Numbered from the whole stretch's first letter, positions 3,010 through 61,200 are shown. The stretch is 63,806 nucleotides of DNA, filler included, from Reclinomonas americana ATCC 50394 (GCA_048213135.1; 18 parts of 18 records of this genome joined end to end with filler, not necessarily neighbours in it); one strand, 5' to 3'. Numbers and translations: made by a program. The notes: generated by a model from the sequence alone, not told the origin.

Positions 3010-5680
3010 NNNNNNNNNNNNNNNNNNNNNNNNNNNNNNNNNNNNNNNNNNNNTTAATTAATTAANNNNNNNNNNNNNNNNNNNNNNNNNNNNNNNNNNN
3101 NNNNNNNNNGAGAGAGAGCGAGAAGAAGAAGAGGTAGGGCAAGATGCAGAGCCCGCATTCGATGCTCCTCTCTCTCTCTCTCTCTGTTGTTTGTGTGCAT
3201 TGATGGCACTGACAGTGCCGTGAGATGATGATGACTTGCACAACAACAACAGCAACAACATACACGACGTCGTGTTCTCTCTCTCTCTCTTTCCCGCTAT
3301 TGAGAGACACTGATCTCTGCATCGCGCAGGACCTGTGTGCTCCGGATTTCGTGCTGTGTGCCAGCGAGTTGCATCACCTGTGCCGGTGAGTAAGTGAGGA
3401 GAGTAGCGCTTCATGCTGGCTTCCTGACAAGGGTGACGCGCAGTGAGCATGTGACAGAAGCTGGAGTGGATCTGTGTGGCGATGGAGTCACATCGCTGGC
3501 CACGCTGAAGGAGGCCTCGCGACGGAACCACATATCCTTTGGCAACGTGAAGGTTGCGTTCTTTGGTCGCTCGTCATACAAGTCGCCAGTGATGTTGAAT
3601 TGTGAGAGGCACCACAGGTCACTTGTCCACTGTGCCATGCACCCATGGTTTGTGTGTTTCTTTATCCCTCTCCCTCCATCTTGCACACTCCGTCGGTTTC
3701 TCTCTCCCTTGCACTCAATACCTTCCCTCAGTTTGCCTCCCATTTCTCCACCCCTCCTTCTCTGTTCTCTTCTCTTTTCCTCTCCCTCCCTCTTCAACTT
3801 CTACTCCCTCGCCTCCTGTCTACCTCTCCCTGGTACGTTGTCGCAGATCCCTTTCCCTTTCTGTGGTGTCTTTCTCTCTCTCTTGTCCCTTTCATTGTCA
3901 GTGTCATTCTCTCATTTTCTTTGCACCCTGACATTCTCTCCTTCTATCTTTCGCTGCCTCTCTTGCCCTCCTTTCATGTATGGTGTCTTCCCTCGTACTC
4001 TTCGCTCCCTCTCAATCTCATTGTCTAATCTGTCCTCTCACTCTGGATGAACAGACGGTGGGCGACTATTACCGCACACATGCTCTGACGCAGTGTCCGT
4101 ATGCCTGCGAGCGGTGTGGAGAGCAGATGACACTCGATCGCACGGTGGAGCATGAGTGGAGTGGATGCTTGCGGGAGTGTCCTCTCGGTTGCGGAGCGAG
4201 GATGGCACTGAGTGAGATGGTGGAACACAGTTGGAGTGGGTGCATGCGGTCGTGCCCACGTGGATGTCAGCAGCGCTGTTCATTGGCGGATTTGCAGCGG
4301 CATCTTGGTGAGTGCTGTGAAAGAGAGAAGAGTGTATCGTGACACTGATGTGGTGTCTCTGTGGCAGAAACGGAGTGCCGACTGCAGCACACGGTGTGCC
4401 GAGGTGATGAACTGGGGTGTGGATGGCGTGGAATCATTGGGGAGAGGGAGGAGCATGAGCGAGTGTGCGACGTGTTGCGAGTGGAGCGACCGCTGCGAGA
4501 GGTTTGTTTTCGGAGATGGGCAATGCTGCCTGTCATTCGTGCAGCTAATGTGGGTCGTACTTGTGTGCGCAGCTGCATGGCCGAGTGCGAGAGCTGTCGC
4601 AGATGGTGGCTGAAAGCAGGGAGCAACTGGCTCAGGAGAGTCAGGCGAGACAAGCTGTTGAGGAGCGACTGGTCGATTGTGTGGGGATGCTTGTCGAGTG
4701 TCGCCAGCAACTCACTGGTGAGCAACGGGCGAGGCAAGCGACAGATGAGCGGCTCGCTGTGTGCACCGAGCAACTAGGATCGGAGCGTCGCATGCGTGAA
4801 GCTCTCGAGAGAGGAGTTGCTGAGGTCTTTTGCGATGAATTTGGCTTGTACATCGCTCCTCTTCTCATTTCATTCTCCTGTTTATCTGCAGCTGCTTGAT
4901 CGTCTCAAACCGCTGGAGGAGCGTGAAAGAGCGATCCAGGAACGAGAGACGGCTGAGCGGGAGCGGCTGGCCAGAGAGCAGGAGGAGCGCGAGCGGCAAG
5001 CCAGAGAGCGAGAGGAACGGGAGCGGCAGGCCAGGGAACAAGAGGAGCGGGAGCGAGCGGAACGGAAGATTGACAGTGATCTGCTGAGTGCTGTGGATGG
5101 AAGAGTGGTGCTGGAGTGGGTGCAGCAGGCGCGAGGCGGGAAGGTGCCCAAGTTGACGTTGCTGTTCAAGGGCAGTCGAGATGGGTTTGCGGCAGCCACA
5201 TTCCATCAGAAATGTGACAATCGCGGGTGAGTGGTTTGGAGAAAGGGAAGAGTGGTTGTTTGCTCGGTGACCGACGTGGCTGTGCGCAGAGCGACGCTGA
5301 CTGTGGCCAAGTCGTCGACAGGACGAGTGTGTGGCGGATACACACCTGTGTCGTGGCAATCTCCCGCAATAGGCGCTTACGCCGTCGATTCATCTGGCAC
5401 CAGCTTCTTGTTCTCGGCGTCGTGGAGTGGAGCAAGTGTCCGACGCTTTGCACTCAAGGACGATCAGAAACAATATGCCGTTGTTCACGGTTCTGGATAT
5501 GGGCCTACATTCGGTGGAGGGCACAGCCTTATCCTGTATGACAACTGCAACAGCAACAGCGGCAGCTACAGCAACCCTGTCTCGTACCAGAGCACCGACA
5601 GAGGAGCATTGGACAACACGACACTGATGGGATCGCGGAACTTCCAAGTGGCCGACTACGAAGTCTTCCTCGTTGAATGA
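2640..5680 (+). CDS. RING-like/TRAF-type zinc finger - coiled coil - TLDc protein, copy B (spans linker at 3054)
   Basis: ATG 2640; exon 1 ends EYLCPVCL|gtgagt; after the gap the exon series matches copy A, ending ..FQVADYEVFLVE* at 5680. Confidence 0.85.
3010..3109. other. Artificial contig linker (N-run + TTAATTAATTAA + N-run); first of 17
   Basis: Identical 12-mer with stops in all frames at 3054, 8509, 12318, 13419, 17617, 20149, 23513, 26268, 28191, 31470, 33733, 39080, 43094, 44928, 48488, 56139, 58533. Confidence 0.97.
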
Positions 5681-21696: not shown

Positions 21697-23006
21697 TCAC
21701 AGGCATGGTGTGCCAAAGGCGCGAATGCGGGAGATGCCACCGTCGGGGAACATGGTCAGACGCAGGTGGGTGATTGGACCAGCCTCCGGGTCGGCGTCAA
21801 AGTGATGAATGTGATCGGCGCGCAGCTGCGTGCGTGGCAACACCGGACGCCAGTTGAAAATCGGAAGCTCGCCATTCAACATGTGCAAGTCGTCCGTATC
21901 CGCCTGGCAGCCATCAACCTGTTCCGCACGCGCGCCGGTCGATGAGACCTCGTAAGCGCATCATCAAACTGGAGCACAGAACTCACCTGGCATGACTCCG
22001 GGTAGTTGCCCTTGAAGTGTGCCGTGTCGATCACCAACCGGCGAACCACGCCCGTCGTGCCGAGCTTGAGGATGGCCCAGTCGGAACCCGGAGCCACGAC
22101 CAAGCCCGAGGCCTGGTCCATGACCAGCACCGGCGGTCGCGTCAGCTTGCGAGCCGTCTCCCATCCGTCGCCCATGTTGATGCCACGGCCGGGTTGAATG
22201 AGGTTGCGCGGCTCGCCAAAGTGCTTGTCGCTGCAGCCGAGCGCCACACCGCCAGACTCGACGGCCGCCAGGTCCACTTCCTCATCGCCAGCGCGCCACT
22301 GCACCGCCACGTCGCCCCACACACGAAGGCGCGCAATGCCACCGTCGGGGAACATGTTGAGGCGCAGATGCGTGTACCGCTTGTCGCTGTCGACCTCGAA
22401 GAACTGGCGGCGCGAGTCCTCGTAGCCCGGCTCGAGCGGAGTGAACGGCACCAGCTCATCCCACTTGTCACTCTCCAAGCGATTGGCCAGCTCGAATTCC
22501 TCCGGCGTCGCCGCCACGCCGCACCGCTTCCCCCAGCCACGCAGCGGCGCCAGACGCTCATCGTCGGCACTCAAGCTCGTGGCGTACACACTGGCGCGCG
22601 GTGCATGATTTCCCGTGAAGAACGCCGTGTCGATCTCAATGCCGCGAATGCGCCCCGGCATGCCCAGCTCCAAGATGCACCAATCGTGACCGGCGGTGCG
22701 ACGCCGACGCGACTCCCACCCATCCATCCACTTGCCGAACGGCGTGTACACATCCACACGGAACTCGGGCTCGCTCGACAACATGAGACGATAGGCGCCG
22801 GCAAACCACTCGTCGCTGGCAAACAACACTCGCCCACCCGTGCGCTCCGCCGCCAAGTCGGTGAGCGGGCGCGAGCTCAACCACTCGGGAACCGCGCCCA
22901 CTGCGCCCGCGCCAACCGGGCGCTTGGCGCCGCCGCGGATCACCACACACGGGACCTTTTGCGCCACCTCATCCGTCACCACTCCCGACACGTGAATGCC
23001 TTCCAT
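21697..23006 (-). CDS. ALLC: Allantoicase (allantoate amidinohydrolase)
   Basis: Two allantoicase repeats: SDEWFA..GKWMDGWESRRRR..GHDWCI..DTAFFTGN..THLRLNMFPDGGIARLRVWG and SDKHFG..MGDGWETARK..DTAHFKGNYPESC..THLRLTMFPDGGISRIRAFG; one intron at 21919-21986. Confidence 0.97.
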
Positions 23007-23078
23007 GATTGCGCTTTGAGTGACGAGCGAGTGATCCTGTCCTGCTACTTGCATTATCTCAAGTTAAGTTCCGAAGCA
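23007..23078. promoter_or_regulatory. 72-bp divergent intergenic region, putative bidirectional promoter
   Basis: Lies between the allantoicase ATG (23006, -) and allantoinase ATG (23079, +); TTATC (GATAA on -) at 23054-23058. Confidence 0.6.
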
Positions 23079-23805
23079 ATGCGCGAGGGACCTGCGCTGC
23101 AGCAACGCAGCAGCACCAATGCGAACAACGCCAGCAACAACAACACCAACACCGCCACGGCGACGACGACTGCTGTGACGACACGAAGTGCACGTCATGC
23201 GTGGTATCTGCACCCGGCGCTGTTTGTGACTCTGCTGGCAGTGGCCAGTGTGGTTCTCCTGCACAACCACATGTCGCATGAGGTGCCAGCTAGTGGTACT
23301 GTCGAGCCTCAGGAAGTAGAGAAGGTCGAAGAGCCACCAGTGCCGCCAGTGGCGGAGGGCAAGATCCGACCATTTGCGCTCGTGTCTCGTCGCGTGCTGA
23401 CCGACAGTGATGACGTGCGTGCGGCGGCGGTGCTGGTCAACGAGGACGGCATTGTGGAGCGCGTGCTANNNNNNNNNNNNNNNNNNNNNNNNNNNNNNNN
23501 NNNNNNNNNNNNTTAATTAATTAANNNNNNNNNNNNNNNNNNNNNNNNNNNNNNNNNNNNNNNNNNNNGTGTGGGATCCCGACGCGCCCTACACCATTGA
23601 TCCGTCGCGCACGTTCCACCGACACAAGCGCTCGCCGTTTGACAATGTGCACGTGCACGGTGTGATCCACAAGACGTACGTGCGCGGCCGCCTGGTGCAC
23701 GTGGACAGCGAAGAGGATATTGCGGAGGAGGAGAGTGTCGAAACGTCGGGCCCGGGCAAGCTGATGTATCGCGACCCGGCCACTGGCAACATCCGTCTCG
23801 ACTGA
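23079..23805 (+). CDS. Allantoinase (amidohydrolase); middle lost in the gap
   Basis: N-terminal hydrophobic segment, then FALVSRRVLT..AAVLVNEDGIVERV; after the gap VWDPDAPYTID..FHRHKRSPF..VHGVIHKTYVRGRLV, typical of allantoinase/dihydroorotase-family C-termini; gene context favours allantoinase; metal-binding His residues not visible. Confidence 0.8.
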
Positions 23806-23917
23806 GGTCGAAGCGTGCGCATGAACGACTTGGGGGGGAGCGTTTTTATCTCTCGTGTGACGTTGCAATGCAACACGCCATTTTTTGTGAGTCGCTCTGC
23901 TCCTCCGAATCCACTCA

Positions 23918-25683
23918 TCACTCGCTCGCTCCCATGCTCTCCTCAAAGGCCGCCACCGCGCCCGAACCGTCCTTGTATCCCAAATGAGCAAGAGCCTCCT
24001 CCAGAGCGGCCAGAGCCTGTCGTGGGTGCGCAGAATTCGGTCTCGCCGATGGACCTGGATGCAAACAACAGCGCACACATGATTAGTTGTCCACATGCAC
24101 ACACAAAAGCACTGCGAGGTTGCACGCAACCCATGGTGCCGATGCGGAAGTAGCGCGTCTTGATCTCCTTGTGCAGACCACCGGCAATAACGACTCCGCG
24201 CGCTCCCACCGCCGGCAGCAGGTTCGGCAGGGTGACACTTTCGGGTCCGTCGGGCAGGTAGACGCACGTCAGTGTGTTGGCCGCATGCGCAGCGTCAGTG
24301 GGCACCAGGCGCAGACCGAGCGCAGCAATGGCGGCACGCATGGCACGACCGACACGACGCTGCTCGTCAAAGCGGCGATCGATACCGCCATCCACATTCA
24401 GCAGCTGGTCCAGGCCCACCGACAGCTGCTGCACGAGATTCACCGCTGGCGTGGCAAAGTAGCTCGGCGTACCAGCCTCGTAGGCCTTCATGATGGGCTC
24501 CCATCGTGCCCAGTCGGCGTAGTATGAGGAGCAGCGGCCCTTGGCGGTGCGTGCCTGCAAGGCCCGCGGACGAACCATCAGCAGGCACAGGCCAGGCGGC
24601 ACACCGATGCATCTGCGGGCGTGTTCAGCACGGTGACGCAAGCGGACGAGGCGGAGTACAGCAACGGAACTTTTGCGAGCCCGTCATGGCCATATCCACG
24701 CCCCACTCTTGCATGCGCAGCTCCTCGCCACCAATGGAGCACACTGTCACACACACACACACACACACACGCACACACACACACACCAGAATGAGTACGC
24801 GCGCGCTGTGCACGGGCAGAAAGTCGCGCACTTACCTCCATCGACAGCCACCAGCGTATCGGGCGACACCGCCTGCACCAACTCGGCAATCGCCTTCGGG
24901 TCCGTGCGCACACCAGTCGACGTGTCCACGTGCGTGACGGTGATCATCTTGAACGGACCCTCCGTCTCCAGCAACTGGCGCACAAGTGCCAGCGACGGCA
25001 CTCCGCCAACACCAGCCTCGGCACGCGCATGAACCACCACTGCACCATACGTCTGCATATGCACCTCTACTTGTAAGGAAAAAAACAACATACACCACCA
25101 ACACGGCAATTGCACACCTCGAGGCAATCGCCAAAGCTGCACACAGCGTCAGCATCTCAGCTTTGCTATAGACAGAGCGCACAATGCAAGACGAGACGAC
25201 TCACCTGTCACCAAAGTACCTGCAACACCGCAGCGCAGCGGGTGTGAGTGCAAGCAGTGGTGGTGGTGACAATGGAGCTCTATTGTGGCGACACTCACCC
25301 TGTATTCACCACCAACACCTTATCGCCGGCCTCCACCACATTCGACGCAATCGAGTCCCACCCGAGACTCCCGGAGCCCGTGATAACAAACGGCTGACCG
25401 TCGGCTGCCAGAAACACATCGCGCTGCCCGAGATGCAATCACAAATCATCAGACTTGACCTTTTGTCTCTCTCTCTTGCGCTCTCTCACGTCGCACGTGC
25501 CATCTGTGTCAGACACTTGCCAAACACTCGAATGAAGCCTGCATCCACATGCGAGGTGCCGCCGAGACGCACACCGCCCATCAGCACATCCTCATCGAAC
25601 TCAATCGGACCCGGAATCATCAGTGTGCGTCGCCCCTCGGCAAGCACACTGGGAGAAGAAGAAGAAGAAGACGAGGAAGCCAT
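23918..25683 (-). CDS. AGX1: Class V PLP aminotransferase, alanine:glyoxylate aminotransferase (fungal AGX1-like)
   Basis: TLMIPGPIEFDEDVL..SHV; QPFVITGSGSLGWD; TGYFGDSFGDCLETYG; TVTHVDTSTGV; VDGVCSIGGEELRM..TGSQK (PLP lysine)..GVPPGL; SYFATPAVNL; AGGLHKEIKTRYFRIG..ALEEALAHLGY; multi-exon. Confidence 0.9.
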
Positions 25684-25751
25684 GTTATCAACGCAAGCTG
25701 TGTGTGAACGAAGTCCTTCTGTCCGTCGACTTTGTCATTCGTTGTTGTCAC
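25684..25751. promoter_or_regulatory. 68-bp divergent intergenic region, putative bidirectional promoter
   Basis: Lies between the aminotransferase ATG (25683, -) and ureidoglycolate lyase ATG (25752, +); TTATC at 25685-25689. Confidence 0.6.
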
Positions 25752-26223
25752 ATGAGCTCTCGCGTCGTGCTTCCTGTGGAGCCTCTCAGTCGCGAGGCAT
25801 TTGCGGCGTTTGGGGATGTGATTGAGCCGGAGAATGCCGAGCGCACGTACCCGATCAATGCCGGCACCACCACGCGGTTCCACAATGTGGCGCCGGCGGT
25901 GGAGGTGCATCCGGAGGTGGGGCGCGGTCGCACTCTGCTGTCGATTTTCCGCGCCCAGCCGCGCCAGTTGCCGATGCGCATTGAGATTATGGAGCGGCAT
26001 CCGTTGGGCAGTCAGGCGTTTGTGCCCATGGTCAGTGAGCACGGCCTGATGCCGTTCTTGGTGGTCGTCGGCCCGCCGGATCCAGAGTCTGCCGAGGTTC
26101 ATCTCGCCCCACTCCTCTGCTCTGCTCTGGAGTGCGTCTAACCCCCATGTACAGTGCGACACGAGCAAGCTGCGTGCATTCATCACGGATGGGCGGCAGG
26201 GCGTGAACTATGCGCCCGGCACG
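25752..26223 (+). CDS. allA: Ureidoglycolate lyase (AllA/DAL3 family), 3' partial
   Basis: EPLSREAFAAFGDVIE..INAGTTTRFH..SIFRAQP..MERHPLGSQAFVP..FLVVVG|..LRAFITDGRQGVNYAPGT; intron 26097-26154 with ctaac branch site. Confidence 0.93.
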
Positions 26224-26323: not shown

Positions 26324-27410
26324 AAAGATGTCGGCGATAGCCGCCGCTTGAGCGGACTTCGCACGAGCGCGCGGCCGCGGAACTTGGCCGCTGCCGACGG
26401 CGACGACTGCACCGCCGGTTGGCGGTTCCTACGGATGCGACAGAGGAGGAGATGAGCCCGCGCACGGGAATGCGGAAAAATACATTGACCAACCGTAATC
26501 TATCGTCGTGATCCACGGCATCGGCAAAGTGAATGATGAATGTGGCCATGCGATGGTACTCCTTCTGCAGCTGCACGGCATGCGAGGGTGGTGGAGGTCA
26601 GCAGCGATACGCCAATCACAACCGTCGCGACGATGCACGGAACCTTTGGACTGTACAACCAACTCTGCAGTCGACTCTTGCAAATGTGCAGGCGACTGCG
26701 TCGAGCCGGGTCCCATGCCAGTGGCGACGCAGCAGCCAGTGCGTCTCGCAAGTCGGCGCGCGTCAACACGCTGCAGCAAGCTGTGCGCAACAAAGCGCAG
26801 ATATCAGACGACAGAAACATACCGACCAGCATGTCACAGTGTGTCATCATCAAACGCAGTACCTGGCCAGTCGCGATCGGGAAACGGAACGTTGAGAATG
26901 AGGCACAGTGCATGCACCAGCACATAGTACTCCTCTGTCGGGTACGCTTGCACCACACAGCGGATCACATATCGCGTGTACTTTTCGAGTTCCTGACTGC
27001 TCCTCCCCCCACAGTGCGTGTGAGCAACGCCACTGTGTGCACGTGTACAATGGACACTGCATGCAGCCACGCAACTGCGCAAGGCGCATCAAGTCCTGCA
27101 CATGATGCGACGCACCACCACCTGCAGTGGCCATCATCCGCTTCGTCATCGCCATCAACTCATCGCCATTCTGCGCCTCCTCGCTCTCTCTTCCCGCCAC
27201 CGCGCCTGTGCGAATGACCACCGCCGGTGATGACAGCAGCATGCCAGTGTGCATGGACGACATGGGCGACAGTGGCGGGGGCGACAGAGAGGAGGAGGGC
27301 GAGGGTGAGCGCGCGCCATGCTGCACATCGTCGTCGCCCGCGACACCGCCTCGACTCCCGGCTGACTGACGGCGCGTCTCTAGCCGCCGCACAGTGGCGT
27401 CCGAGAGCAT
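26324..27410 (-). CDS. Uncharacterised multi-exon protein, divergent from DDB1 (3' partial)
   Basis: Exon-like segments ELEKYTRYVIRCVVQAYPTEEYYVLVHALCLILNVPF and QLQKEYHRMATFIIHFADAVDHDDRLRLVNVFFRIP; start uncertain. Confidence 0.45.
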
Positions 27411-27514: not shown

Positions 27515-30500
27515 ATGGCGACCTCGTACGTGGTGACTGCGCAGCGGCCGACGTGCGTGTACGACTCGATTACTTGCTCGTTGGTGGGCGGTGCGAGTCT
27601 CAATCTGGTGCTGAACAAGTGCACTTCGATCGAGATCTACTCGGTGTGCAACGGAGGCTTGCAGCCGCTCGAGGATGTGCCGGTGTATGGCCGCATTGCG
27701 TCGCTGCATGCCTTCCGTCCGCCAGTTGCGTGTTTGTGTGACACTCCGCGTGTGCTGCTCGGTGTTTGCGATGCGTGCGTGTGTGAGGACATCTCCCTCT
27801 GCTGCGCCCTGCGGGCACTGCTTCTGTCGCTTCGCGTGTTTGACCGGCGTCTTTTGCGGCTGTGTAGGGACACGAACAGGACCTGTTGTTCTTCTTGACG
27901 GAAAAGTACAGCTATGCGGTGTTGCGGTACAATGCGGCGACTCGGGCAATGGAGACGTGCGCCTATGGTGACGCGCAGGTGCGTTTGTGTCACACCGTGG
28001 TGTCTCTGAGGACGTTAGTGGTGGTGGTGGTGTGTGTGACACGTGCTCTCGTGCCTGAGCAGGATCGCATCGGACGACCGACGGAGAAGGGACCGACAGG
28101 AGTGGTGGATCCGCTGTGTCGCATCATTGGACTGCACATGTACGACNNNNNNNNNNNNNNNNNNNNNNNNNNNNNNNNNNNNNNNNNNNNTTAATTAATT
28201 AANNNNNNNNNNNNNNNNNNNNNNNNNNNNNNNNNNNNNNNNNNNNGTGTGTGGGAGAGGATTGGTGATAGAAGCGTGTGACAGTTTACATTGATGCGTT
28301 TCTTCCAGACGAGCTTGGCCTCCTCCATCTCGTACCTCGACAACTCGTTTGTCTTTGTGGGCTCCTGCTACGGCGACTCGCAGCTCATCCGGCTGAATGC
28401 GGAGAAGAACATTGACGAGTCCTACGTGGAAGTGGTGGACACATTCGTGAATCTGGCCCCGATCCAAGACATGTGTGTGGTGGACGTGGAGCGGCAGGGT
28501 CAGGTTCGCGGAATGCACACATTATATACATGGAGCACGAATGAGTGCAGTGCTGTGCTCACGCGGTCTCCCCCCCATTCTCACACAGGGTCAACTTGTC
28601 ACGTGCTCGGGCTGCTTCAAGGACGGCTCACTGCGCATTGTTCGCGTGGGTGTCGGAATCAATGAGCAGGCCGAGATCGAATTGCCGGGTATCAAGGTGC
28701 GCAGTGCGCTCTGCCACTTGCAGGTCTCCAGCCGGTGCGTAACCATAAGAGTCGTGCAGGGCATGTGGAGTCTGCGACCGAGTTCAGTCGACGACCGTGA
28801 AAAGTACATTGTGTTCTCGTTCATTGGCGAGACTCGCATTCTGGGCATGAGCGGTGCGTGCTTTTTTTGTTTTTGCTCCTAGTGCTCGTATTTGCTTATC
28901 GACTTTCTTCTGTGTGTGCGCAGATGCACAAGTCATGGAGGAGATGGATATCGACGGCTTCGACCTGAGTCGACAGAGCCTGTACTGTGCCAACACCACC
29001 AACGACTGTGCACTGCAAGTGACAGAGGTGGCAGTTCGACTGATCAGCCTGCAAGAGCCAGCGCTTCTCTCCGAGTGGTCACCACCGAGCGAGTGGACCA
29101 TCAACCTTGCGGCCTCCAACAATGGCCAGTTGGTGTTGGCAGTCGGTGGTCACACCCTGGTCTACTTGCGCGTCGAGGGTCGTGAGATTGTGGAGATCAG
29201 GTCAGTGCGTGTCCTCAACTGAACTGTCGGCGGCGGGTGATCTTACTCGTGATGTGCAGTCGCCGAACCATGGAGCGTGAAATCTCGTGTGTGGATCTGA
29301 GCTCGCTGAGCAGCGAATCCGACGACAGTCCTGTGTGCGCCGTTGGCCTGTGGGACGACATCAGTGTGCACATTGTGCGACTGCCTGGCTTTGAGCCGGT
29401 GACACAGGAGAATCTTGGCGGAGGTCTGTTGTCTCGTCGGGTAGAAGGAGAGTGATGTCGTGGTGCCACTCACATGGTCGCCGCTTGTACTTTCCAGAGT
29501 ACATTGCACGCTCGGTACTGCTGGCGTCCTTTGAGGGCATCTCGTACCTGCTGTGCGGCTTGGGTGATGGTCACTTTTGCCATTTCCGCGTCGATCTCGA
29601 CACGTACGCACTCACTGATCGGAAGCGCATCTCGCTCGGCACCAAGCCAACCATGCTGCACCGTTTCACTCACCGGGTACGTCACGCGGATTGTTGTTGT
29701 TGCGAGTACGGGAGCTTGAGGGTGGCCCTGAACATCGCGTGTCAACGCTCACAGGGTCAATCGCACGTGTTCGCCGTGTCGGATCGACCGACTGTTGTGT
29801 ACTCCAACAGCAGCAAGCTACTGTACTCAAACGTCAATCTGCGCGAGGTCGGCAGCATGTGTTCGTTCAATTCAGACTCGTCACCCGACTGCCTGGCTAT
29901 CGCCACCGATGCCAAGTTGGTCATCGGCACCATTGATGACATTCAGAAGTTGCATGTGCGCTCCGTTTACTTGGGCGAGCAGCCGCGGCGAATTGCACAT
30001 CAAGTTCCGTGTGGCGCGAGACGAGACTGAGAGAAGGAAAGTGTTGCTGACGTATGCCGTGTAGGAAGCGAGTCAGACGTTCCTTGTCGCCACGTCGCAG
30101 TTCCGTTTGGACGAGACGGAGACGGAGCACGAGTACAGCTTCCTGAAGCTGTTTGACGAGAAGACGTTTGACGTGCTCAATGAGCACGCACTAGAGGAAA
30201 TGGAGACTGTGTTTGCTGTCCAGTCGGTGCATCTGGGCGACGACCCCACACCGTACTATGTCGTCGGTACGGCGGTAGTGAGCGACGAGGTGAGTAATGA
30301 CTGCGTTTTTATCGGCGAGCGTTGTTTGTGTGTTTTTTACTGAATACTGGTACAGGAGCCGGAGCCGACCCGCGGCCGCATCTGTGTGTTCGAAGTAAGA
30401 GACCGCTCGCTCGTTCTCGTCACCGCTCGCACAACACGCGGAGCCGTGTACGCATTGCGTTCATTCTCCGGCGGCCGTCTGCTGTCGACAATCAACAGCC

Positions 30501-31340
30501 GAGTTGCGGATGCGCCTTCCGAGTTTGTGCATTCATTTCCGTGTTCCTTACACCCGTCGTGCCATGCGGCTAGTTGCAAATGTGGCGCTGGGAGGATCAG
30601 GAGGGTGGCTCGCACGAGCTCTCCTCCGAGGCGCAGGCCAGTGGCCAAGTTCTCAGCCTCTCGGCAAAGACTCGTGGCGACTTTATTCTGTGCATGGATC
30701 TGATGAAGTCGGTCAGCGTCTACTTGTACGAGGCCACCGATGCTCAGTTGAAGGAGGTGAGATCCCAACCGCCCGTCTCGCGCAACCCATGTGACATTGA
30801 TTTGTGCCCGCACATAAAATATAGGTGGCACGCGATCACAGCTCCACATGGCCAACCGCCTGCGAGTTCATCGATGACGACGCCTTCCTCGCCGCCGACA
30901 CTGGCAACAATTTGTACTCGCTGCGAAAGGTGACGCTGAGCTGTCGCATGGTGTTGTACAGTACACGTCGATTGACACGTTGCTGTGGTGTAGAACCCGG
31001 AGGCCACCTCCGAGGAGGAACGCAAGAAGCTGGACATTATCGGCAAGTATCACCTTGGTGATCAAGTGAATGTGCTCACACCAGGTCAGTTGCTGTCGCC
31101 CGTCATTGCTCGTGTGTTGTTTGTGGTGACTGACCCGCGGCGGCATGCAGGCTCGTTGGTGATGAAGTTGCCGGAGTCTGAGGGCCTCTCGGTGTGCCCC
31201 ACGATCCTGTACGCGACTGTCAGCGGTGCCATTGGACTCGTCGCACTGCTGCCGGAGGAGGACTTCCGGCTGCTGCACGCCGTGCAGCGCAAGCTCAACG
31301 AGGGCATTATTGGCGGTGTCGGTGGCCTCAGTCACGACCA
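27515..31340 (+). CDS. DDB1: DNA damage-binding protein 1 (CUL4 adaptor), many introns, interrupted by gap, 3' partial
   Basis: [120 protein letters not shown]. Confidence 0.97.
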
Positions 31341-31525
31341 GTTGTGTCTCTCTTTTGCTCATGATTCAGTGATGAGAGTGCGCCTCCTCATTGCTCTTTC
31401 TCTCTCTCTCTCTCCTACTTTCCCCNNNNNNNNNNNNNNNNNNNNNNNNNNNNNNNNNNNNNNNNNNNNTTAATTAATTAANNNNNNNNNNNNNNNNNNN
31501 NNNNNNNNNNNNNNNNNNNNNNNNN

Positions 31526-58230: not shown

Positions 58231-61200
58231 CTAATACAAGGCGTCGCTGAAATCGGGCAGGAATGATCCGAGTATTCGCTCCGTCAGCTCGCTCTCCCCG
58301 TCCCCCCGAAGCACGTGAATCGACTTGTCAGAGGCTTGGACGGTGATATTGTCCATGGTGGCAGTCTTGTTGGAGGTGCCAGCGAGATCGTTCCGCGTGT
58401 CGCACTGCACTTCTTCGCCGCTTGCCAGCGACCACACACGCACCGTCTTGTCCGAACTCTTGCTCACGACATGCTGGCAGTCGGGTGTNNNNNNNNNNNN
58501 NNNNNNNNNNNNNNNNNNNNNNNNNNNNNNNNTTAATTAATTAANNNNNNNNNNNNNNNNNNNNNNNNNNNNNNNNNNNNNNNNNNNNCTCGCACCGTGG
58601 AGTCGGCACTTCCACTCACAATACACCTACTGTCGGGCGTGACGGCGACAGACAACACTCGCCCCGTGTGCCCACTCAGTTGTCGCACCTCTTCTCCAGT
58701 CACCAGTGACCACACGCGCACTTTGTCGTCATTACTCCCACTGACAATGTGCTTGGCATCGGGAGTGACGGCGACACTTCCCACCCCCAGACGGTGTCCC
58801 TTGAACCGGTGGACCTGTTCTCCAGTCGCCACAGACCACACTCGCACTGATTCGTCGCCACTGCCACTCACAATGTATTTGCCATCGGGTGTGACGGCGA
58901 CAGACCGCACTTCACGAGTGTGCCCTTCAAATCGTTGCAACTCCTCGCCACTCGCCAGCGACCACAAACGCACAATGTCGTCATCACCTCCACTCACAAC
59001 AAACTGACCATCGGGGGTGACGGCAACAGAGTACACCACGCCTTCTTGTCCGTCCATCTGTCGCACTTCTTCCCCAGTCGCCGTGGACCACACTCGGATT
59101 GTCTCGTCAGGACTCGCGCTCACCATGTGCCGACCGTCGGGGGTCACGGCGATGGAACACACCGAATCCGTGTGCCCCACCATTGGCTTTCTCGGCCACT
59201 TCACATCCGTCACCTTCGCCCCGCGGAAATCTGCCTCCTTGGCAAACGCAGAGCACACATTCACCCCTCGCAGATCCGCCCCCCTCCACACCGTCCTATG
59301 CATCACCGCATCTCTCAAGTCCGCACCCCTCACTCGCACCCCCGACAGATCGCGCCCACTAAACGACACCTCCGCAAGGCACAGTGCACTCGCCGCACTC
59401 GATGCCACTGCCGCGATTCGCTCCTGGTCGCGCGAGAGAGCAACGGCGTACCACAGTGCAGGTTGCAGCGAGTGATCAGCGCGCACTTGCTCGCCAATGA
59501 ACGAAAGAATGGAGTTGAGTCCCTGCGATCAACAGTGAGGTTGTGAGAACGGCGACCGCGTACGGAGATGAAGAATCACACTCACTTCATCTGAGGTGAG
59601 CAACGCTCGTTGACCAGAGAAGCTGCAACAGAGCCGGTCGACTCGTTCCTAAGAGCCATTGAAGGAATCAGCATACAATAGCTGGAAGAACATGCCAAGC
59701 AGCGACACACTGCTTTGCTCACCTCCAGCTCAACGTCCTCGTTGGCCAGCACTTGTACATCGGCTAGCCACGCTTGTGCTGCGAAATACTCCAGCACTGA
59801 CTTGTGCATGAACTCCACTCGCTGCTGCGACACGCCGAGACGGCTCCACTTTAACAACGCCTGCATGATCTAGTGAGAGCGTGAAAAAAGACGAATGCGT
59901 GGCTGGCCAACAAGACGTAACAGCGCGAGCGAGCGAATTTTGCAACGGGTCATCACGAGCAAACCACTTGTCCCACACCTGTTGCTCTGCCATAACTCCC
60001 TGCATCCAGTGTCACAAGAAAGTCAGACAGAGTAGCGGGGGAAGGGGATAATGAAAGCGAGTGAGAGGTTGCACAACACTGAATGGATACAACGACGACG
60101 ATAGAATATCCATGCGAAAAGTGAGGGAAGGGAATAACGAGAGCGAGTGAAAGGTTGTACAACACAGAGTGGATACAACGCCGACGGCAGGATATCCATG
60201 CGAAAAGTGGGGGAAGGGGATAATGAGAGCGAGTGAGAGGTTGTACAACACTGAATGGATACAAAGACGACGGTAGGATATCCATACAAAGTTGGGGAAG
60301 GGGATAACGAGAGCGGGTGAGAGGTTGTACAACAATGAATGGATACAACGACGACGGCAGGATACATACAAAGTGGGAGAAGGGGATAGCGAGAGCGAGT
60401 GAGAGGTTGCACAACAGTGAATGGATACAAAGACGACGACAGGATACATGTTAAGTAGAGAAGGGGATAAAGAGAGCGAGTGAGAGGATGCACAATACTG
60501 AATGGATACAAAGACGACGGCAGGATATCCATACAATAAGTGGGGGAAGAAGACCAACGACGGTGTGCGTCGGCACAGACTCGAATGCAGATGAGCACAA
60601 TGAACGCGCAACTATACAGATGCAAGCTCCTTCGTCTAAGAAGGGACTCACGAGTAAGAGACGGAGAGCGAAAGAAAGAGAAACATCCCACACGCGCCGT
60701 TCACGTTTCCGGGTGGGGGCACAAGCATACATCTGCCTGAGCATCTACGAACCTCAATTCGACCCTGCCGCACAGACGTCAGCGAGTGCTGCATCATCTC
60801 TCCGGCAAGATCCGAGCAAAAGTCCCAAACACGCTGGCAGAATGTCTCTTCTGAGTCGTCATCGCCGAAAAGCTGCGCAGAGTTTCAATTGTGAGACGGC
60901 GTGGGGAAGGGAAAGAGTGGGGGAAGGAGTGGGGGAAGGAGAAGGGCGAAGGAGAAGGGCGAAGGAGAAGGGGGAAGGGAAGGGAAAGAGAAGGGGGAAG
61001 AGAAGGGGGAAGAGAAGGGGGAAGAGAAAGGGGAAGAGAAAGGGGGAAGAGCAAGGGGGAAAGAGAACAGGGGGGCAATGAAGAAAAAGAGTGGGGAAAG
61101 AGAAGGGGGAAGAGTTTGGAGGAAGGGGACTTGGGAAGTTTCTCTCTCTCTCTCTCACCTGCCGAATGTTCACACGATAATGCTCAAACTCCCAGCGCAA

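Follow-up and report, generated by a model that had tools for sequence, protein, structure and literature searches.

There is ample evidence of catabolic gene clusters in fungi and bacteria, but in eukaryotes other than fungi they are rare. The DAL cluster of Saccharomyces, a textbook example of how relocation of genes gives birth to a cluster, consists of DAL1, DAL4, DAL2, DCG1, DAL7 and DAL3; it has been proposed that glyoxylate toxicity selected for the DAL3-DAL7 linkage (PMC2776167). Here we compare with it a locus at 21697..26223 of a 63,806-nt scaffold (this whole stretch is called the window), in which genes for allantoicase (-), a putative allantoinase (+), an AGX1-like aminotransferase (-) and ureidoglycolate lyase (+) follow one another. 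Judged from its sequence, this four-gene locus is probably a real allantoin cluster that was built independently, with the aminotransferase in the role of DAL7. What would be new is a eukaryotic allantoin cluster of separate origin from DAL, with an aminotransferase replacing the malate synthase and with a bacterial-like lyase.

The locus and the DAL cluster are alike in that both are eukaryotic and both bring together allantoinase, allantoicase, an AllA/DAL3-type lyase and a glyoxylate-removing gene. However, DAL removes glyoxylate by the malate synthase DAL7, while the locus has an AGX1-like aminotransferase instead. It is also unlike DAL in having introns, in being arranged as two head-to-head pairs whose genes are at most 72 bp apart, and in an allantoicase that falls among those of stramenopiles. 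The families of the DAL4 permease, the DAL7 malate synthase and DCG1 are not found among the 167 open reading frames (ORFs) of at least 133 residues across the window. Since the gene set differs, with an aminotransferase for DAL7 and no permease or DCG1 seen, the view that the locus does not descend from the yeast cluster is well founded. Gene content and the position of the allantoicase thus uphold the original prediction, made from the sequence, that the locus is independent of DAL.

Other described systems share parts of this arrangement. Bacterial allantoinase-allantoicase and allantoicase-AllA operons set the same enzyme families side by side, but they are mostly co-directional, intron-less and without the aminotransferase, whereas the locus is divergent, has nine introns and carries a eukaryotic-type allantoicase. 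The Bacillus subtilis puc system resembles the locus in having a class-V aminotransferase (PucG) within purine catabolism. PucG uses glyoxylate as amino acceptor, and belongs to the allantoate amidohydrolase/ureidoglycine branch. The aminotransferase of the locus is nearer to AGX1 than to PucG (78.8 vs. 26.6 bits), and accompanies an allantoicase, which bypasses ureidoglycine. A malate-synthase-like ureidoglycolate lyase is described for metazoa, Amoebozoa and SAR (stramenopiles, alveolates and Rhizaria) (PMC10120013). It carries out the same reaction in allantoicase-bearing eukaryotes, while the locus uses the unrelated cupin-type AllA enzyme. A neighborhood survey recovered five reported clusters in green algae, those for urease assembly, urea assimilation, photorespiration, nitrate metabolism and Fe-hydrogenase assembly (PMC7826186). 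As small nitrogen-acquisition clusters these algal neighborhoods resemble the locus, but none of the five concerns allantoin, and only green algae are covered (PMC7826186). A 2026 review of uric-acid catabolism names clustering for bacteria and yeast only (PMC13751858). The full-text literature, whose coverage leaves out most subscription journals and supplements, yielded no allantoin cluster described in a protist or alga.

By family membership, allantoinase would convert allantoin to allantoate, allantoicase would split allantoate into ureidoglycolate and urea, the AllA-type lyase would release glyoxylate and a second urea from ureidoglycolate, and the AGX1-like aminotransferase would turn the toxic glyoxylate into glycine. 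The genes form two head-to-head pairs, allantoicase/allantoinase and aminotransferase/lyase, which stand tail to tail, so that the gene for the glyoxylate-forming lyase directly adjoins that for the glyoxylate-removing aminotransferase. Read directly from the sequence, the divergent spacers measure 72 bp (23007..23078; GC 0.47) and 68 bp (25684..25751), and the convergent spacer between the pairs measures 112 bp (23806..23917). The first could shrink to 24 bp if the allantoicase starts at the in-frame ATG 23054. Each head-to-head pair would share one very short bidirectional promoter region. Nine introns of spliceosomal type, 53-92 nt long, interrupt the genes: one in allantoicase, seven in the aminotransferase and one in the lyase. 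The coordinates, strands and spacer lengths of the original prediction agree exactly with the sequence and frame reading, and the introns that it saw in three genes are all there. Its statement that no gene intervenes is not confirmable across 23469-23568, where a fixed 100-bp placeholder hides at least ~1.1 kb. As a rough estimate, four steps of one pathway would come to lie consecutively by chance with a probability of ~1e-10 in a genome of several thousand genes. Tight spacing as such is typical of this genome rather than specific to the locus: an unrelated divergent pair (27410/27515) is 104 bp apart, and the end of a Sel1-repeat gene lies 103 bp from the allantoicase stop.

Allantoicase is encoded on the minus strand by two exons. 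Exon 1 (21987..23006) begins at ATG 23006, with the upstream ATG mentioned above also possible, and matches the Pfam family PF03561 at 5.8e-77 over two repeats (257.2 bits vs. a cut-off of 27); on its own it reaches 352 bits on the NCBIfam model TIGR02961, whose cut-off is 277.9. The exon-1 frame meets a stop on read-through, and homology resumes in another frame beyond a 68-nt intron (21919..21986, GTGAGT..AG) in exon 2 (21697..21918), which ends with the stop codon at 21697-21699 and covers positions 80-154 of the 155 in the PF03561 profile (4.7e-15). Wherever the best 120 matches carry an organism name, that name is eukaryotic, and among the matches listed there is no fungal sequence. The top ones in that list come from stramenopiles and are 57-61% identical: Nannochloropsis (57%), Tribonema (61%), brown algae and oomycetes, all of which belong to that group. 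For the tree, 54 rows were aligned: 44 of the 120 matches, selected so that named stramenopiles, animals and unnamed entries were represented, together with eight bacterial copies, one metagenome contig (L001) and the window sequence. The eukaryotes separate from the eight bacterial rows with SH-aLRT support of 97, and the window allantoicase falls inside the ochrophytes as sister to Tribonema plus brown algae (SH-aLRT 89, not starred). The suggestion that the host is a non-fungal protist and not a yeast is borne out by the place of this single gene among stramenopile (ochrophyte) sequences. On the opposite strand, a plus-strand frame of ~490 codons (21996-23468), open up to the gap, spans the entire allantoicase gene in antisense and passes without a break into the start of the putative allantoinase; open frames alone are weak evidence in GC-rich DNA.

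The ureidoglycolate lyase, of the AllA type, lies on the plus strand. Exon 1 (25752..26096, starting at ATG 25752) matches PF04115 at 2.9e-31 (108.7 bits vs. a cut-off of 23), NCBIfam ureidoglycolate lyase models at values down to 6.7e-32, and the AllA structures 2bdr, 1xsr, 1yqc and 1xsq in the PDB at 2.8e-23 to 3e-19, with 2bdr the best. Read-through into the 58-nt intron (26097..26154, GTTCAT..AG) meets a stop at 26139-26141, and homology resumes in another frame in exon 2 (26155..26223), which is cut by the next gap and still aligns to PF04115 positions 99-124 of 162 (20.8 bits, cut-off 23). Because the gene is truncated, it stays below the NCBIfam cut-offs. Its ancestry differs from that of the allantoicase. 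Among its best 120 matches, the 12 named organisms are all bacteria, and no eukaryote is present; in bacterial genomes, the identity to proteobacterial enzymes is 55-63% (Pseudogulbenkiania 63%, Azoarcus and Undibacterium 59-60%). An exhaustive protein search gave a closer relative, P0241, on a 1919-nt Logan contig, with 64% identity. The two have in common a 3-residue insert (EHGL.PF) that is absent from all 58 other rows compared, and in a tree of 50 rows, of which 48 are bacterial genome copies, they form a clade with support of 97/94. P0241 turns into read-through sequence exactly at the site of the window lyase intron, so that at least one further eukaryote carries this bacterial-like lyase with the same intron. 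The third-position GC of the window lyase, 0.78, is the same as in the neighboring genes. Given these bacterial matches and the malate-synthase-like lyase reported for SAR, a bacterial origin of the cupin-type enzyme is plausible from sequence comparison. It would then have been a bacterial-like gene that later gained an intron and a host-like codon composition.

Such a lyase raises the question of whether the whole locus could be a bacterial purine-catabolism operon, either as a contaminant or by recent wholesale transfer. Linkage of these families is frequent in bacteria, which the original prediction did not anticipate, any more than the bacterial-like character of the lyase. Of 80 metagenome loci, 51 have allantoinase directly upstream of allantoicase and 13 have allantoicase beside the lyase; the latter linkage also occurs in 38 of 48 bacterial genome loci, where the lyase is mostly directly downstream on the same strand. 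The lyase itself, at up to 63% identity to Pseudogulbenkiania, would fit such an origin. But the locus has nine introns, its gene pairs are divergent and not co-directional, and its allantoicase shares 57-61% identity with those of stramenopiles but just 36-48% with bacterial and metagenome copies, and lies on the eukaryotic side of the tree described above. Moreover, the aminotransferase is present in none of the 80 metagenome loci and none of the 48 genome loci (0/128), and codon composition is uniform across the genes. With its genes divergent and interrupted by introns and its allantoicase eukaryotic, the locus cannot be a transferred operon, and we regard this explanation as exceedingly improbable. 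The locus is better read as a eukaryotic cluster, which this lineage would have assembled from genes differing in ancestry.

The aminotransferase occupies 23918..25683 on the minus strand, and a spliced open model of 420 codons in eight exons begins with ATG 25683 and ends with the stop at 23918-23920 (exons 25683-25501, 25423-25299, 25219-25205, 25136-25118, 25064-24836, 24743-24671, 24612-24131 and 24054-23918, separated by introns of 53-92 nt). Six of the seven introns are GT-AG. For exon 7, yeast AGX1 (2bkw) is the best of 11 PDB matches (3.9e-21, 78.8 bits), ~52 bits above PucG (3isl, named "Purine catabolism protein pucG"; 4.6e-05, 26.6 bits), and for exon 5 it is the sole one (4.3e-07). 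As 2bkw comes first or alone for two separate exons, the label "AGX1-like" is justified, and the earlier assignment stands. Across intron 6 the exons join to give an SQK motif, whose K would be the pyridoxal phosphate lysine; the IGVPPGL after it stands in register with IGAPAGL, from which the 2bkw alignment starts. In the ESM Atlas, one exon falls near Aminotran_5 clusters with a score of 0.94, a lead only. A pattern search of bacterial and archaeal genomes gave no close relative of this aminotransferase. Intron 5 (24744-24835) consists mostly of a (GT)n/(CA)n microsatellite; in the comparison with sequencing reads, 24737-24792 was skipped as repetitive.

Whether this enzyme really removes glyoxylate is a separate matter. 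It might be a class-V aminotransferase of another kind, for example of serine-pyruvate or PucG-like ureidoglycine type, which stands here only incidentally in a compact genome. The substrate specificity of class-V enzymes is unreadable from sequence, the best NCBIfam matches, to BhcA (aspartate-glyoxylate) and to pyridoxamine-pyruvate transaminase, fall well short of their cut-offs, and unrelated genes of the window are also ~100 bp apart. Yet PucG scores far lower than AGX1, the allantoicase route produces no ureidoglycine on which a PucG-like enzyme could act, and the gene stands head to head with that of the glyoxylate-forming lyase. An incidental neighbor is for these reasons unlikely, and a role in glyoxylate removal, parallel to that of DAL7, is preferred.

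The putative allantoinase is seen in two pieces on the plus strand. The first is an N-terminal ORF of 130 codons (23079..23468), whose frame is open throughout from ATG 23079 to the contig end; the second is the C-terminus of a cyclic amidohydrolase, for which allantoinase is the best reading (23569..23805, stop at 23803-23805). This C-terminal fragment has 78 residues, of which 48 are conserved. In NCBIfam it places the allantoinase model TIGR03178 first of 16 families (3.3e-06, 26.2 bits), with a second allantoinase equivalog at 23.0 bits, ahead of the dihydroorotase PRK09059 (21.4), ErtD (19.0) and dihydropyrimidinase (15.7). The TIGR03178 cut-off of 357.85 is beyond its reach since ~80% of the protein lies in the gap. 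A hidden Markov model (HMM) was also built from 39 full-length ORFs beside metagenome allantoicases, after 12 cut ORFs had been dropped. The sequences in it are true allantoinases, as all 12 of those tested score 540-598 bits on TIGR03178; they were selected for loci carrying an allantoicase, and so do not by themselves exclude other amidohydrolases. Against this model the fragment scores 36 bits at positions 394-441 of 456, the sole significant match among 1425 six-frame pieces of the window. Because no other piece matches the profile (positions 35-393), the barrel is simply missing. Comparison by hhalign with 20 allantoinases gives 97.4%, with an E-value of 1.1e-11 and 42% identity over 48 columns. 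The C-termini of ORFs upstream of the metagenome allantoicases match the fragment at 25-45% identity (E-values down to 3.6e-12 within that small set). The nearly invariant H427, H429, K430 and P433 of the HRHK..P block are kept, as are the invariant G441, T446 and G450, while the invariant Y434 is replaced by F.

A different amidohydrolase, whether dihydroorotase-like, a hydantoinase/dihydropyrimidinase or a hydantoin-propionate amidohydrolase, would leave the locus with the downstream half of the pathway only. With only 48 informative residues, the scores of PRK09059 and ErtD are not far from that of allantoinase, and the weak PDB matches (E 0.13-0.3) are to dihydropyrimidinase-related protein 5 and hydantoinase; there is no Pfam match. 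A search of 5.8 billion proteins returned 20 candidates, none at E<=0.001. Nevertheless, both allantoinase equivalogs outrank every other NCBIfam family, the comparisons with verified allantoinases (36 bits and 97.4%) agree with the conserved motif, and the neighboring genes cover the three pathway steps that follow. What discriminates between the candidate identities is the NCBIfam ranking, although its margin is small. Taken together with the pathway context, these comparisons indicate that the enzyme is very probably an allantoinase, and the other amidohydrolases are correspondingly improbable. In the ESM Atlas, the fragment lies among unnamed fragment clusters, with Amidohydro_1 the nearest named family at 0.88 (also a lead only).

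The N-terminal ORF is composed of a low-complexity stretch, a hydrophobic, helix-like stretch and ~30 last residues that can be aligned to the first allantoinase strands. That alignment covers positions 8-34 of the 456 in the profile at -0.8 bits, and with an hhalign probability of 0.5% it is not significant; Pfam, NCBIfam and the PDB gave no match apart from a chance one in the PDB to flightin (E 0.39). The original prediction had named the gene allantoinase, with N- and C-terminal parts flanking the gap in the right order and on the right strand. Its second half holds, as the 48 C-terminal residues fit allantoinase first and lie on the plus strand after the gap, while the identity of the N-terminal part is unsupported. 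As to the four families together, profiles and structures corroborate allantoicase, lyase and aminotransferase, and for allantoinase the support is partial and comes from the 48-residue fragment. At a guess, the hydrophobic stretch might anchor the putative allantoinase in a membrane, with the later steps being cytosolic. None of the three complete C-termini of the locus carries an SKL-like signal.

The two pieces meet at a join of the scaffold, which is made of 18 contigs joined at 17 places (for example 3010-3109, 23469-23568 and 58489-58588). All 17 gaps have the same fixed 100-bp unit of 44 N, TTAATTAATTAA and 44 N, giving 34 runs of exactly 44 N, and TTAATTAATTAA is a six-frame stop linker; the gap lengths are therefore placeholders, unrelated to real distance. 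The locus is spread over contig A (20205-23468) and contig B (23569-26223), and the placeholder between them (23469..23568) hides ~360 amidohydrolase residues, profile positions 35-393 being missing from the window, so that it must conceal at least ~1.1 kb. It could be that the join is wrong or was guided by homology, in which case contigs A and B would be separate loci and there would be no single four-gene cluster. The gap is indeed the same placeholder as everywhere else, the similarity of the N-terminal ORF to allantoinase is not significant, and one public sequencing run, tested with contig B, shows neither a bridging contig nor loose ends, and no match at the ends of this contig. On the other hand, an RSE1/DDB1/CPSF160-like gene with several introns (27515-31425, +) crosses another placeholder, 28147-28246, with its parts in N-to-C order. 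Before this gap are its start at 27515 and the beginning of the first propeller (profile positions 3-58), and the parts that follow it are the second propeller, at 28451-28879 and 29395-30027, and, at 30994-31425, the CPSF_A region, every part on the plus strand. That join is consequently real, and contig order is supported by it; it also conceals several hundred bases, since the missing part of the first propeller exceeds what the placeholder could hold. Were the join within the locus wrong, it would be a remarkable accident that contig A ends in an open frame and contig B opens with a matching C-terminus on the same strand. Contig B alone, moreover, links three genes of the pathway. A wrong join is thus an unlikely explanation, and the locus is probably continuous.

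Several observations nonetheless weigh against a genuine, independently built cluster. Every catalytic residue of the amidohydrolase is among the ~360 that lie outside the available sequence, the N-terminal ORF is not significantly amidohydrolase-like, and allantoinase scores only ~5 bits above the best dihydroorotase model; the dihydroorotase and dihydropyrimidinase alternatives raised earlier do score lower (21.4 and 15.7 vs. 26.2 bits), but the fragment compared is short. Some 40 residues at the end of the lyase fall beyond the contig end, and its clade with P0241 emerges from an unresolved polytomy, which singles out no donor. For homology and frame to be kept in the aminotransferase, intron 1 (25424-25500) must have a GC-AG boundary (GCACGT..CAG), unless the sequence has a local error, an alternative GTGAGA donor 10 nt downstream being out of frame, and the single-exon pieces gave no Pfam match (Aminotran_5), three at E<=0.01 and three at E<=10. 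The two gaps, inside the amidohydrolase and after the lyase, could conceal further genes. The placement of the host comes from one gene, the deciding branch being that with SH-aLRT 89. The divergent spacers share no motif beyond chance, with nine 5-mers in common compared with a shuffle mean of 7.9; shared 6-mers number one, against a mean of 2.1. Finally, the linkage is found in neither of the two eukaryote-like relative contigs examined.

In the first of these contigs, L001, the allantoicase (L001:1633-2871) is intron-less and almost identical to a Nannochloropsis gaditana protein. Its neighbors are genes for a PPR protein, an EF-hand proline dehydrogenase and a poly(A) polymerase; over 1.6 kb upstream and 10 kb downstream, allantoinase, aminotransferase and lyase are all absent. 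The second, L002, is a contig of 39% GC in which the allantoicase is broken by what looks like an intron; the 5.7-kb right flank contains no other cluster genes. The synteny survey proposed for related protists thus extends to two contigs, both with allantoicase and without the cluster. This absence fits a lineage-restricted assembly but gives no date. Convergent assembly, as originally proposed, remains an inference, to which the relatives contribute an allantoicase without the other genes.

It can tentatively be proposed that a stramenopile-like photosynthetic protist joined its native allantoicase and allantoinase with an AGX1-type aminotransferase and a bacteria-derived, cupin-type lyase, the last two sharing a 68-bp promoter; this fuller scenario is rather less assured than the cluster itself. 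If it is true, the bacteria-derived lyase would replace or supplement the malate-synthase-like lyase usual in SAR, and the locus would be a case of a bacterial-type enzyme recruited into a eukaryotic cluster. It would also be an independent replicate of the DAL natural experiment, with the same three enzymes, another glyoxylate consumer, and producer and consumer head to head. This would make it a second eukaryotic case, different in mechanism, of clustering driven by selection against a toxic intermediate, as has been proposed for DAL3/DAL7. The two very short putative bidirectional promoter regions offer themselves for testing of nitrogen regulation. In a post-hoc look, GATAA occurs in each of them, at 23054-23058 and 25685-25689, both times at or next to an ATG (as GATAATG and, on the minus strand, as GATAACATG). 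Across the window the motif is found 48 times against 30.7 expected, a number that none of 100 shuffles reaches, and its presence in both spacers is given as a remark, not counted as evidence.

The surroundings of the locus in the window are eukaryotic, with TLDc, RCC1, kinase, WD40, HDAC and RSE1-type genes. Beyond the second gap, a multi-exon gene on the minus strand (26324-27410) has a serine/proline-rich N-terminus and matched no Pfam family. In the public sequencing run tested with contig B, a single 333-nt contig matches; it covers 24445-24736 and differs at 9 of 292 positions, which hints at another strain, another allele or error-rich reads.

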